Origin: Bacteroidales bacterium
GTDB lineage: Bacteria; Bacteroidota; Bacteroidia; Bacteroidales; UBA1402
Assembly: GCA_017380635.1 (NCBI GenBank)
Contig: JAFODP010000004.1
Span: forward strand, 86,828-150,827
DNA: 64,000 nucleotides
Direction of reading: 5' to 3'
A program made the translations under genes and the position numbers. Shown here piece after piece: positions 34,672 to 38,836 of the stretch (position 1 is the stretch's first letter; every line of letters begins with the position of its first letter). The notes beneath the pieces were generated by a model. It saw only the letters and a list, made by a program, of their open reading frames with translations, was not told where the DNA came from and did not search any database.

Positions 34672-35790
34672 TTATTGACGATTGATACTGATTTTCGTTA
34701 TCTCTTCCTGCTCATCGGCCTTCATTTGCAGCACGACGGCATCGCCTAGTGGCGGCGAGACAAAGTTAAGCACTTCCTCATAAAGGCCGCTCTGCGTTTG
34801 GCCTTTATTTAACATACCCACCATTCGACTGGCAGCATCATACACACGAAACGTAATGCTGCAAGTCTGTTGCAACTCGTAATGAAGCTGCAAGCCCGTC
34901 TTGTCTTCCGTCACCCTTGCCGTCATTATTATCGGGAATGGCTCTTCCTGCATCTCTTGCGGTGCCGGCATCGTCTGTTGTTCCCTTATGGCTTCGTTGA
35001 CGCTGTCGCAAGGCAGATCGTAGGCCTGATCCATGGGTGCATAGCGGAAGGCCGTGGCAAACAAAAGTTCTTTTTCCCCTTGACGGATACGGCCGCTCTC
35101 GTAACTTTCCATCACCGGATAGCGATAACCCCACACATACCACCGATACACATCTTCGTACTTGACATTCAACGTATCTCTCTCCAAAACGGCTTTTACA
35201 CTATCTTCTTGGCTTATATTCATTGACAACGCATCTTTGCCTACCTTCTGTACATACTCACCGTAGCGATGTACCCGGAGCACGTTGTCCAAAGTATCTT
35301 CGCCCAGCACCATGCGTCCTTTAGCATCTGCCATGGTATAGCTATAGCCGCTCATGCTCATATGCAGGCGCTCGCCGTACAGTCCCCGCATGGCATAATA
35401 GCCGAAAATACTGTCTCCATACGAAAAAGGATAAGTGAGCTCGCATCGGGCAAGGAGTGATTGCATACGGGTTGTCCTGTTCTCAAAGCCCGTACACATA
35501 AGACTGTCCGAATGTATCTTATAAAAATACAGGCTGCCATGTTCTATGCTCACCAGACTATCTTCCACCACTCCGCAGTCTCGTCTGTAAGTTCTGTCCG
35601 ATGAAACTTCCGTGGGGCATTCCCAGATCAAGTTCTCGCCCCGTTCACCGGCCGGCACAAAGGGTATCTGCTGTTTATACAGGTAGTCTCCGTTTCGCAT
35701 CATATTGCCCTGTCGGGTGAGCTCGTGCTGTGCAAGGGATGATAACACGGCACACACGCACATGGCGGTTATTATCATTGGCTTTTTCAT
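34672..35790 (-). CDS. Secreted 372-aa hypothetical protein with a T9SS-CTD-like C-terminus
   Basis: Start taken at MKKPMIITAMCVCAVLSSLAQ (ATG at 35790), 1 nt after the upstream stop. Other in-frame ATGs at 35802 and 35826 are possible. The last approx 70 aa (LQLHYELQQTCSITFRVYDAASRMVGMLNKGQTQSGLYEEVLNFVSPPLGDAVVLQMKADEQEEITKISI) follow the beta-sandwich pattern of Por secretion tails. Confidence 0.7.
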   Translation of the reverse strand: MKKPMIITAMCVCAVLSSLAQHELTRQGNMMRNGDYLYKQQIPFVPAGERGENLIWECPTEVSSDRTYRRDCGVVEDSLVSIEHGSLYFYKIHSDSLMCTGFENRTTRMQSLLARCELTYPFSYGDSIFGYYAMRGLYGERLHMSMSGYSYTMADAKGRMVLGEDTLDNVLRVHRYGEYVQKVGKDALSMNISQEDSVKAVLERDTLNVKYEDVYRWYVWGYRYPVMESYESGRIRQGEKELLFATAFRYAPMDQAYDLPCDSVNEAIREQQTMPAPQEMQEEPFPIIMTARVTEDKTGLQLHYELQQTCSITFRVYDAASRMVGMLNKGQTQSGLYEEVLNFVSPPLGDAVVLQMKADEQEEITKISINRQ

Positions 35791-35791
35791 A

Positions 35792-38746
35792 TTATTCCTC
35801 ATGTGGGTGTTTATAATTGTAATCAAAAGTCTTTATGATACCTTGTGCATCACGGATGACAGATAGTTTGCCATCGTCGTGATAATCGTAATAGAGCGTA
35901 TAGCCGTTCTCGTTGGTGATGGCCGTGGGACCGAACAAGGGGCGATACACATAGGTGGTCAACAATACATTCTTATTGGCAAGAGCCGTGCGCAAGTTGA
36001 CAAGATGATTTCCCATTTCGGATGAATCATCACAGCTTTCTATGCTCGTCAGCAGCGACTCCAATCCCCAGGCCGTTCTCAGGCGTTCATGACTCACTCC
36101 CTTTATTTGTGCCACGGGATATTGTGAATGATAACCCCACACCAGCGCCACCGTATCTGTGGCATTCTCCACCAGCGTCAGGATATTACCCTTATTGTCG
36201 TATCGGGCAAAATGTATATCCTCTTCCAAGGGATTTCCTTGCAGGGCGCTTCTTATGGATTTCGGATAAAACCAATCCGTCTCTCCATTATACACATAAT
36301 CAATGGCTTTTGTCGACAACAGATTGTCGTTGCAATAATATCTCTCGCCCACCACCTGATCCAGCATTCCATAATCGTTTGCCATCGAATCGTACAAATC
36401 ATCCGTCCTATCTATGGTATATTCGTAGTCCGTCCTATATACCTTACCATCACTGCCTGTCCGTGTGACGCTCTTGGGCTTGAGATTTCTATACAGACTG
36501 TCGTAGGTGAAACTTTCCACACTGCTCACTCCCGTCACATTGTCCGTCACCGTCCTGCTCTTCAACAAACACACCGACGAGTGAGCTAGGACTTGGGCAT
36601 GGGGTATGGCAGTACTGTCTACAACATATGAACTCAATGGAAGAATCTCTCCAAATTCAGTTCCAATCGTATAAATACACATAACCTCGTTACCCACTTC
36701 GTATGATTTAACGCTCTTCGATTCGTATTCATAAGATTCTGTCTGCAACAAAAGACCTGTCTTGTCATAAATCTTTTTGGATTCAAGATAAGGACGAGCA
36801 TATCCCTCATCATTTAAATTGCTTGGAGATAAAAGAGGATTATCTAACTTTAACGTTCCAATATACTTAACAAAATTCCCAGGGAGATATTCATAACAAA
36901 TAGTTCCCTCATTATCAACCTCTCTAATGGTTTCATAAAACACAGGGCTACCGCTATTATCACTCAAAGGTAATATTGGATCTGCCAAACACATTGTTCT
37001 TTCACATAAAATAGTTGAGTCTAAAATTGTTATATAATGATGATAAACCTTGTATCTCATCATAAACTCTGGTGGATCGTGTGTAACATACCCCCAATCA
37101 TAATAATAATTCTTTATCCTTGATTTTCCATCATTTGCAGAAGAACTGATACGCTTTATCCGCAAGCCGCCAACGGTATGTCCATTTATGACATTGGGCT
37201 CGTAAACAAATCCCGTTGATCCTCCCGTGGGAAATGTAATGGATTTCAGAACACCCGTCTTTGCATATTCAAAATTCGGATTCTTATTTGCTGTATTTTC
37301 CAGCCAATGCTCTTTAGAAGAAAAGTGATGACCATTATCTACAAGGGAATCGATAATCGGTCTTATGACATCTACGGATACATAATTCTGGCTCTCTGTT
37401 CCATTCCAATATCCCCAATAGTCCGTACGAGACCTATGTCTTGCCACATTTCCATCCAATCCCTTTTCTTTCAGGTAATACGAAGGAAGCTGTCGGGATG
37501 TATCATAAGCGAATGAATACAGCCCTTCCGTTGATACCGAAAGTCCACGCAAGAGCATTCTGTAATTATCCAAATCTCGCCCCAAGTAATAATCATTGTC
37601 GAAGGAAATCGTCTTTACTATCTCACCTTGAAAATCTCTAACCTCCATCTTTGTCAATCGAATGGGGAGATGATCTCTTCGTTCCGTCGAATAAGAAAAA
37701 TCTATTCGATTTCCATTCCACCTTATACATTTTAAGATAGGTATGTTATATAGATACTGTATTGATTTTTTCTGTGGTTTTGCTTTATACCCCTCACTTA
37801 AACTTATCATTAGATCATCTGGATCAAGTTCTTCTTCATAATCCTCATCGGGATAAATATTCACAATTGTTGCTTCCCTAAAATACCCCAATTCCATTGA
37901 TTCTGATAATGCATAGGCATAATGATAATAGCACTTTTTATCATATTCAAAAGTTATATTACCATTCGGGGTTTGAATCTCAGAAAGATACCACGATGAT
38001 ATTTCTGTTAAGGTTTCCTCGTTAGTCGGGCCCACATATTCTTTATCCTGAAAGATGTAAACTATCCCATCAGTGTCCAAGATATAAAATTCGCTATTTT
38101 CACCCCTTGACACATAAATATATAGTGGATCTGCATTAAGCGTAACAAAACTGTTATCCTTATGCGAGTATCGAAGAACACCCGACTTATTGCCGAATTT
38201 ATAACAATACCTGTCCGATTGAACATCATATTTGGAATTGGTATTGAAGGTTTCTTCTGCAATTGCCCCTTGATTGATAATAGTCAATAATCTATCAAAA
38301 TTTAAACCTCCGGAACTTTGCATCTGTTCTATCAACGTATGCAGTTCCGCATAAGAATGATACAAAGTGTCTCTATCTGTCGCTTGACTTAATCTCAAAT
38401 CGGGCGCGCCATGTATGGTTCGCGTTACAACACCGCCTGCATTCAGCACCCAGCCAAGCCCCACCGTCGAGGCCACATCGTCCACACGTATTCCCGATGC
38501 ATGATACGAAATGGATATCGGCAAATGATAATCGCCCAACTGAATGTCGTACAAGGGAATTTCAATCTTTGGAACACCTGTCGTGTGTCCTACCGGATAT
38601 TCTCCGTAACGCGCCAAAGCCGCCGCCTCAGGCGAAGGAGGGACGACCCGATTCAATATCGATATGCTCGATGCTTCTTCCTGCGAATGTAGCAAAGGAC
38701 AAACCGACAAAAGCAACAAACTGATAATCAGAATTCGTTTCATCAT
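35792..38746 (-). CDS. Secreted 984-aa protein with an SpvB/TcB-like N-terminal motif and C-terminal YD repeats
   Basis: Signal peptide MMKRILIISLLLLSVCPLLHSQ. The stretch YGEYPVGHTTGVPKIEIPLYDIQLGDYHLPISISYHASGIRVDDVASTVGLGWVLNAGGVVTRTIHGAPD follows the SpvB/TcaC N-terminal pattern (G..IP...LP.SLSY.S....G.GW.L....I.R...G.PD). YD-type repeats sit near the C-terminus (DGKVYRTDYEY, YDYHDDGKLSVIRDAQG). Assignment rests on pattern only. Confidence 0.65.
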   Translation of the reverse strand: MMKRILIISLLLLSVCPLLHSQEEASSISILNRVVPPSPEAAALARYGEYPVGHTTGVPKIEIPLYDIQLGDYHLPISISYHASGIRVDDVASTVGLGWVLNAGGVVTRTIHGAPDLRLSQATDRDTLYHSYAELHTLIEQMQSSGGLNFDRLLTIINQGAIAEETFNTNSKYDVQSDRYCYKFGNKSGVLRYSHKDNSFVTLNADPLYIYVSRGENSEFYILDTDGIVYIFQDKEYVGPTNEETLTEISSWYLSEIQTPNGNITFEYDKKCYYHYAYALSESMELGYFREATIVNIYPDEDYEEELDPDDLMISLSEGYKAKPQKKSIQYLYNIPILKCIRWNGNRIDFSYSTERRDHLPIRLTKMEVRDFQGEIVKTISFDNDYYLGRDLDNYRMLLRGLSVSTEGLYSFAYDTSRQLPSYYLKEKGLDGNVARHRSRTDYWGYWNGTESQNYVSVDVIRPIIDSLVDNGHHFSSKEHWLENTANKNPNFEYAKTGVLKSITFPTGGSTGFVYEPNVINGHTVGGLRIKRISSSANDGKSRIKNYYYDWGYVTHDPPEFMMRYKVYHHYITILDSTILCERTMCLADPILPLSDNSGSPVFYETIREVDNEGTICYEYLPGNFVKYIGTLKLDNPLLSPSNLNDEGYARPYLESKKIYDKTGLLLQTESYEYESKSVKSYEVGNEVMCIYTIGTEFGEILPLSSYVVDSTAIPHAQVLAHSSVCLLKSRTVTDNVTGVSSVESFTYDSLYRNLKPKSVTRTGSDGKVYRTDYEYTIDRTDDLYDSMANDYGMLDQVVGERYYCNDNLLSTKAIDYVYNGETDWFYPKSIRSALQGNPLEEDIHFARYDNKGNILTLVENATDTVALVWGYHSQYPVAQIKGVSHERLRTAWGLESLLTSIESCDDSSEMGNHLVNLRTALANKNVLLTTYVYRPLFGPTAITNENGYTLYYDYHDDGKLSVIRDAQGIIKTFDYNYKHPHEE

Positions 38747-38836
38747 ATTTTAAGAATTTTTCACAAAGATAGAAACCTTATTTATTTTTTTCCCTCCTGC
38801 ACAATAAAAACGCCATTTTGCAGTTTATATAATCCC

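Follow-up and report, generated by a model that had tools for sequence, protein, structure and literature searches.

A recombinational mosaic in the TcB-like gene of a Bacteroidales Rhs toxin operon, with a central module that may set specificity

Introduction

How does a gene come to have an AT-rich middle between two ends of ordinary composition, and what could such a middle be for? The question is raised by a three-gene Rhs toxin operon in the genome of a Bacteroidales bacterium (GenBank assembly GCA_017380635.1). It lies on a 64,000-nucleotide (nt) stretch of contig JAFODP010000004.1 (positions 86,828 to 150,827), hereafter called the window, to which all coordinates refer unless stated otherwise. 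The gene in question, here gene A, is the first open reading frame (ORF) of the operon (35792-38746, minus strand; 984 amino acids, aa; protein P0001), and it is the TcB-like partner in that operon, with an SpvB motif and an RHS shell. Rhs and Tc-type shells are re-armed by swaps of the C-terminal toxin tip, and to our knowledge it is not known by what route target cells are recognized and entered by the Rhs toxins that Bacteroidota export through Sec.

An earlier note, made by reading the sequence, had suggested that gene A is a conserved scaffold whose central module has been exchanged by recombination. We found that the gene is almost certainly a mosaic produced by recombination. Three parts can be told apart, all on the minus strand: a conserved N-terminal flank (aa 1-118; 38392-38746) with a signal peptide, the best-conserved motif block of the family and a GC content of 0.50; an AT-rich, exchangeable centre (aa 119-716, 1793 nt; 36599-38391); and a conserved C-terminal flank (aa 717-984 and the stop codon; 35792-36598) with YD/RHS repeats and a GC content of 0.47.

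Module boundaries

By searching 5.8 billion protein clusters with the gene A protein, full-length relatives were obtained at 93, 65, 64, 51 and 43% identity and below. Towards both ends of the protein (aa 1-110 and 725-984), the relatives P0005 and P0006 matched the window protein at 100% and 96-100% identity, but in aa 119-716 at just 34-62%. The relative at 93% (P0004) was 96-100% identical everywhere but in aa ~276-350. In nucleotide sequence, the gene for P0005 (locus L001) had no mismatch to the window in 354 nt of the 5' flank and none in 804 nt of the 3' flank. In the centre (38391-36599), 769 out of 1725 aligned nt differed (45%), whereas the flanks had 0 differences over 1158 nt (Fisher p 6e-212). 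The flank and centre identities thus support the exchanged module within a conserved scaffold, and the collapse of identity was confined to the central part (aa ~115-715), as the earlier note had expected of homologues.

Between the centres of L001 and the window, the proportion of differing synonymous sites (pS) was 0.72, i.e. saturated, and the ratio of nonsynonymous to synonymous change (dN/dS) was 0.23, with a range of 0.23-0.46 over the centre versions. Consequently, these versions are old and functional forms of one module, neither recently decayed nor fast-evolving.

The transitions themselves are abrupt, as identity falls from 100% to ~50% within a few nt. The 5' junction is situated directly after GAPDLR (aa 118/119) and the 3' junction at aa 716/717, in agreement with the limits that had been read by eye (aa ~115-715, just past TRTIHGAPD). 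Both visible junctions lie at motifs conserved throughout the family, namely G-A-P-D116 and P715/A717...AHSS, with the 5' one falling inside the SpvB-like region and not at a domain border. From 36598 to 31998 the window is a single block with 97-100% identity, comprising the C-terminal flank, gene B (97-100% nt identical to L001) and the core of the Rhs gene, gene C. The latter is 89-100% identical to L001, L002, L016 and L023 down to 31998/32027.

The mosaic is no product of faulty assembly, because the exact gene A protein was recorded on four contigs from several sources, and the same block pattern recurs in the independent assemblies L001, L002, L003, L016, L023 and L025. Two metagenome assemblies made independently of each other end exactly at module junctions, namely L025 at window ~36606 (the 3' centre junction) and L002 at window 31999 (the toxin-tip junction), as would be expected if variants coexisted in those samples.

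Base composition

The step in composition seen by eye at about 36.6 and 38.4 kb was recovered in all measures used, i.e. sliding GC, GC at third codon positions (GC3) and genome percentiles. Sliding GC was 0.46-0.53 at 38400-38700 and 35850-36750, and 0.32-0.42 at 36600-38400. The centre as a whole had a GC content of 0.366, compared to 0.501 in the N-terminal and 0.466 in the C-terminal flank. Windows of equal size over the 2.34-Mb genome had a mean of 0.459 (standard deviation 0.032), and only 2.0% of these were as low as the centre. Along the codons, GC3 fell from ~0.45-0.52 (aa 1-150) to 0.22-0.43 (aa 121-720) and rose again to 0.48-0.63 (aa 691-960), which corresponds to about 0.51-0.55 in the flanks versus 0.32 across aa 119-716. 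Ranked among 1218 long ORFs of the genome, the GC3 of the centre (0.318) was at the 1.7th percentile, while the flanks were at the 38th and 63rd. Since GC3 falls most strongly, the drop is mainly synonymous and goes beyond the amino acid content. The centre is indeed enriched in N, K, Y and I, as had been claimed, although modestly so (Y 9.2 vs 7.3%, N 6.0 vs 4.9%, K 5.2 vs 3.6% and I 7.0 vs 6.0%); it is also richer in F and E and poorer in A and V.

Four GC blocks were common to the window, L001, L016 and L023 (from genome G002). In these four variants, the N-terminal flank had a GC content of 0.50, the centre 0.37-0.38, the C-terminal flank together with gene B and the Rhs core 0.50, and the toxin tip with the downstream genes 0.36-0.39. 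As every centre variant examined at the DNA level had a GC content of 0.37-0.38 on the same 0.50 backbone, the AT-richness is not specific to this strain. Of the earlier idea of an AT-rich exchanged module, the exchange therefore stands, but AT-richness as the mark of a foreign piece in this strain alone does not. An AT-rich centre as a trait of the whole family was rejected as well, because L018 and L019 had no clear dip, while the operon in L017 (a 51% relative) was low throughout (0.37-0.39, in a locus of 0.40); nor did more distant relatives have a consistent GC dip in the centre.

Both variable blocks are at 0.37-0.39 as opposed to 0.50 in the backbone, and whole operons of relatives in lower-GC hosts (L017) are equally low. 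On these grounds of composition, related operons of lower GC content appear to form the pool from which the centre and the toxin tip/immunity blocks derive, or in which these circulate, the backbone having a different history.

Predicted structure

The gene A protein was modelled with AlphaFold2 using a 44-sequence alignment, which gave a confident model, with a mean predicted local distance difference test score (pLDDT) of 83.5 and a predicted template modelling score (pTM) of 0.82 for the whole protein. When compared to the PDB with Foldseek, the best global fits were TcB chains (E 1e-17 to 1e-13), with query-normalized TM-scores (TMq) of 0.45 for YenB 4igl_C, 0.41 for 5kis_A and 0.44 for TcdB2-TccC3 6h6g. 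The shells of Rhs, Tse5, Tse15 and teneurin matched at E 1e-17 to 1e-10, those of type VI secretion system (T6SS) Rhs proteins and teneurin with low TM-scores, and the SpvB N-domain 6p0x matched with a target-normalized TM-score (TMt) of 0.42. The centre modelled alone (pLDDT 84.2) matched Rhs, teneurin and TcB-TcC shells as well as the SpvB N-domain.

The window protein had no Pfam match at E<=10, and Pfam and NCBIfam together yielded a single YD repeat (TIGR01643, aa 940-974). Among the 44 members, the Pfam RHS_repeat was found in 32 and SpvB (PF03534) weakly in four (best E 2.6e-5); on P0009 the latter had an E of 0.001, below the curated cut-off. A sequence-profile search of the PDB returned YD-repeat matches and a marginal match to YenB (E 0.17).

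In TcB, a beta-propeller (the TcdB mid domains) closes the shell and docks on TcA, and the earlier note had proposed this propeller as a possible analogue of the centre. The analogy did not hold. No propeller was retrieved above a probability of 0.12 by Foldseek with the centre alone, and of the TcdB mid-domain models PF12256 occurred in one of the 44 members at E 0.03, with no FG-GAP match in any. In the order of predicted secondary structure, the centre begins with a three-helix insert (aa 124-159), followed by SpvB-like strands, a long hairpin (262-296 and 313-343), short YD-like hairpins, a helical insert (aa 433-495) and further RHS-type hairpins. With lengths of 8-35 residues, the strands are as expected for RHS hairpins but not for the blades of a propeller. 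In the model, the centre is thus an SpvB/RHS-type shell wall with variable decorations, and no analogue of the TcB propeller.

In comparisons between centre classes (see below), the helices were the least conserved elements, with 14% of positions conserved as compared to 34% for strands, and the long hairpin was almost wholly variable. Its strands are 31-35 residues long, and a hypervariable patch coincides with the tip, where the pLDDT is low. Conservation along the strands alternates (lag-2 correlation 0.19, lag-1 0.01), in keeping with one face conserved as scaffold and the other left free.

Variants

We aligned 24 close variants of gene A, 20 of which share the N- and C-terminal flanks at >=90% identity. 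In aa 119-270 and 346-450, these 20 fall into two deep classes with ~50% identity to each other; within class II, P0289 stands at 81-88% identity to the other members over aa 119-270. A third centre class (P0007) is found on a diverged backbone. All three are equidistant at 45-46%, with matching flanks at 100%, or at 80% and 57%. The window groups by its flanks with P0005 (100%), but by its centre with P0004, L002 and G002 (98-100%). P0013, in turn, has a C-terminal flank unusually close to that of the window and the most distant centre.

Further variation is nested in the centre. The hypervariable patch (aa 271-345; 37712-37936, minus strand) makes up the outer part and tip of the very long beta-hairpin, and the variants with shared flanks have five or more types of it, with lengths that vary by up to 29 residues. 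Its tip is acidic in the window strain and of variable length between variants. Between species (the window versus L002 and L005), the class I centre is 98-100% identical, while the patch is 32-76% identical. In class II, aa 451-716 occur in at least four or five types.

The operon has a second variable block, consisting of the toxin tip of gene C (31351-31998) and small downstream genes (28235-31998 in all, minus strand, GC 0.36), which is replaced in other variants. The earlier note had drawn a parallel between the centre and the swapped C-terminus of the Rhs gene, and the parallel is supported: backbone homology ends at 31998/32027, where the tips diverge. Beyond 31998 there is no homology in L001, L016 and L023, with tips that are unrelated or 33-38% identical. 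Centre class I goes with one tip in the window and with another, unrelated one in G002.

Interpretation

The explanation that we consider probable, though far from settled, is that gene A is a recombinational mosaic whose centre likely acts as an outward-facing specificity module. The constant backbone runs from the promoter box through aa 118 and then over aa 717-984, gene B and the Rhs core; strains, and even different species, have it in common at 95-100% nt identity, and deeply diverged versions of one centre fold are combined with this same backbone. Further reshuffling has taken place inside the centre, in the protruding beta-hairpin (aa 271-345) and in aa 451-716. The combinations could arise by horizontal transfer of island copies and subsequent homologous recombination in the conserved flanks, an exchange that would proceed without any dedicated switching machinery. 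The centre would face outward and recognize the surface of the target cell. Whatever the variable surfaces contact is not encoded in the operon, since the flanks, gene B and the Rhs core stay the same when the centre is swapped and class I has two unrelated tips. Among the functions considered, outward specificity is the best supported, on account of the nested hypervariability centered on decorations, the purifying selection within classes and the precedent of CdiA and colicins (see below). Even so, a specificity or receptor function, argued by analogy, is on its own a possibility to which we give somewhat less than even weight.

Several points weigh against this explanation. The centre is the least conserved part in the whole family, with 27-39% identity as opposed to 59-80% in the N-terminal flank among distant homologues, and low constraint by itself therefore explains part of the pattern. 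The mean dN/dS of the centre is below 1, with no signal of positive selection in a test that is weakened by saturation. Class II was seen with a single tip family, and the known variants number a few dozen. When the centre by itself was used to look for a closer donor, none was found beyond its own cluster, the next best being 43-45% identical. We infer the outward exposure of the variable parts from predicted secondary structure and conservation alone, and the link of the centre to a receptor by analogy.

Other explanations would account for parts of the same data. The centre could be an exposed surface that diversifies in order to escape recognition, by secretory antibody of the host, by phages or predators to which it serves as a receptor, or by neutralizing factors of competitors, instead of choosing a target; old variants would then be kept by frequency-dependent selection and moved around by recombination. 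Such escape agrees with deep classes on one backbone, hypervariable hairpin tips of varying length and decorations more variable than the scaffold, and the hosts are animal-gut Bacteroidales (a roe-deer rectum metagenome-assembled genome, MAG, and Candidatus Aphodosoma). The population pattern fits receptor choice equally, however, and retention at the surface is unsupported, as a signal peptide is the only localization cue in the gene A protein and gene B has no tag of the type IX secretion system (T9SS) recognizable by Pfam; we regard escape as unlikely. A little less likely still is a neutral by-product, in which the centre is just the segment under least constraint and a backbone with a GC content of 0.50 has swept horizontally over older, diverged AT-rich operons, the unconverted centre marking where divergence blocks recombination and no modular function. 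In every comparison within the family the centre shows the greatest divergence, the backbone is closer between species than the neighboring chromosome, an all-AT-rich operon type exists (L017), and the junctions are at conserved motifs, where homeologous crossovers are easiest. Against this stand the razor-sharp junctions, the fact that the same two junctions bound both classes, the purifying selection still acting on the centre versions and, above all, the further independent exchanges inside the centre in both classes, since repeated internal reshuffling would be unexpected if divergence merely blocked recombination.

Co-adaptation of the centre with its cargo or operon partners, i.e. with the toxin tip or in its fit to gene B or the Rhs core, seems very improbable. 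The toxin is enclosed by a shell in Tc and Rhs systems, TcB-TcC/Rhs shells are the top fold matches, and the single tip family of class II would suit such a coupling, but class I goes with two unrelated tips, and variants of different centre class agree at 97-100% identity in gene B and the Rhs core. A coupling of centre and cargo was accordingly rejected, on a small sample. Programmed variation within one genome, by a diversity-generating retroelement (DGR), an invertase shufflon or gene conversion from silent cassettes, has next to nothing in its favor apart from the restriction of hypervariation to particular segments within a single gene. Differences between the variants affect all codon positions, and synonymous divergence (dS) is saturated, which is a misfit with adenine-targeted mutagenesis. 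Moreover, no second copy or fragment of gene A was found in the genome by tblastn, and neither the centre nor the patch is bounded by direct or inverted repeats, and with a single gene copy and no bounding repeats all three devices are excluded for this genome.

Going one step further with the specificity module, we put forward, more tentatively than the receptor function as such, that the centre may be the targeting cassette of a very widespread, unstudied two-part (TcB/TcC-like) antibacterial Rhs delivery system of Bacteroidota, in which the deep classes would pick different receptors on the target cells and the hairpin tip would fine-tune the choice. If so, strains would re-aim a constant shell by recombination, independently of re-arming the toxin tip, and Rhs systems would possess a second, separately encoded axis of polymorphism. 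As an independently assorting and sharply bounded module of the shell partner, the centre is the piece most likely to set specificity, and operons with the same backbone and different centres constitute natural variant sets for this question. The AT-rich variable blocks on a backbone with a GC content of 0.50 also provide a clean case of cassettes that keep a composition unlike that of their carrier.

Related systems

The closest known relatives in structure are TcB proteins such as YenB and TcdB2. Gene A matches these best in global fold and has a signal peptide, an SpvB-like motif block and an RHS/YD hairpin shell, and as in TcB/TcC it is followed by a TcC-like partner with an Rhs-associated core (the aspartyl autoprotease region). 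Fusions of A and C of ~2000 aa in relatives likewise resemble TcB-TcC fusions. Gene A is, however, ~480 aa shorter and has no detected beta-propeller, A and C are separated by an additional conserved gene (B), and the sequence similarity is marginal, with the E of 0.17 given above. Searches for genes of the TcA type (PF18276, PF03538) detected none in this genome, which is 97% complete, but they gave no signal in control genomes either, and the result is weak evidence of absence.

In the organization of its variation, gene A is more reminiscent of other toxins. Colicins and pyocins have central receptor-binding (R) domains, and enterobacterial Rhs elements consist of a GC-rich core with AT-rich, displaced C-terminal tips. 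Like the latter, gene A joins a higher-GC core to AT-rich replaceable cassettes at sharp junctions, as does the toxin tip of its own operon. The gene A cassette differs in being internal, in residing in the partner gene and in being a structural module of conserved fold, not one of several alternative toxins. CdiA effectors have a variable central receptor-binding region (classes I-IV) that is exchanged independently of the C-terminal toxin (PMC5371414). Gene A resembles CdiA and colicins in its variable centre between conserved flanks, its discrete classes and its assortment independent of the toxin domain. The families and folds are nevertheless unrelated, with filamentous hemagglutinin repeats in CdiA and an RHS shell in gene A, and the module of gene A differs from those of CdiA and colicins in being encoded in a separate gene from the toxin, in its size of ~600 aa and in its internal sub-mosaics; its binding to a receptor is putative.

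What is new here is that modular exchange, known in polymorphic toxins, occurs in a very large undescribed family. The gene A family comprises 4783 representative clusters at E<1e-30, and literature searches on DUF6443 and on T9SS-linked Rhs systems in Bacteroidales returned no account of this operon type, DUF6443 being mentioned in no paper searched.

Operon neighbors

The motif block in the N-terminal flank of gene A reads PISISYHASG...VGLGWVLNAGG...GAPD. Downstream, gene B (34672-35826, minus strand) is a 384-aa ORF and a conserved partner of unassigned fold, as a gene of 363-376 aa occupies this position in all related operons; its product had no Pfam match even at E<=10. Gene C (31351-34662, minus strand; 1103 aa) encodes DUF6443 and an Rhs-associated core, with matches to PF20041 and TIGR03696 (aa 807-888). 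Its constant backbone part, with DUF6443, the RHS shell and the Rhs-associated core, covers 31999-34662 and has a GC content of 0.51.

In other Bacteroidota, gene A relatives are joined directly to DUF6443-RHS in the above-mentioned fusions. Their existence supports A and C forming one assembly, as judged from gene organization, and this would fit the C-terminal flank of A being co-inherited with B and the core of C as a single block. Examples of gene A-DUF6443-RHS fusions and of domain variants are P0124, P0125, P0012 and P0009, and P0032, P0038, P0089, P0103, P0113 and P0019, respectively. Some relatives end in a C-terminal DUF4329 (Tox-JAB-2-type) domain. Extra binding-type domains inside the centre of longer homologues were looked for and rejected, since DUF5977, FN3 and PKD are C-terminal in these, with the exception of an N-terminal FN3 in P0113.

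Genomic context

The Rhs island (28235-38785) occupies one of two alternative chromosomal sites. The chromosomal flanks of L001 are 97.6-98.8% identical to contig C46 of the window genome (G000), and L001 is thus of the same species. In L001 the operon is a 10-kb insert (L001:9862-20093) between an OmpA-like gene and rimP. This site is empty in the window genome (contig C46, about 67612-67706), where the island instead adjoins porP. The reverse is seen in G002, a roe-deer rectum MAG of the same genus: its porP site is empty (L020/L021, G002 contig C18), with the mannitol dehydrogenase gene and porP 36 bp apart, which sets the right-hand limit of the island. The rimP-side site carries the island in G002, L001 and L025. 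Consequently, the adjacency of the window operon to porP-gldKLMN (T9SS) is not conserved. Neither an integrase nor a target-site duplication was seen for the island.

In all the other contexts compared (L001, L016, L005/L023 and L025), homology to the backbone begins at the same nucleotide, C26:125598, which equals window 38771. The shared backbone therefore has its left edge 25 nt upstream of the ATG (38747-38771, minus strand) and starts exactly at a -7 box of the TAnnTTTG type, read from the sequence as TATCTTTG (38771-38764, minus strand), so that the mobile unit would bring its own core promoter element and no upstream sequence. Compared to the sister species L002, the backbone (31999-38771) is 93-97% identical, while the adjacent T9SS genes are 84-89% identical, with porP, gldK, gldL and gldM at 85-89%, which argues for a recent movement of the operon between species.

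Lastly, a dispersed intergenic repeat of ~170 nt with a hairpin is situated at the right edge of the island (28263-28450). Diverged copies of it (73-91%) are found on at least seven other contigs of the genome, and several in G002.

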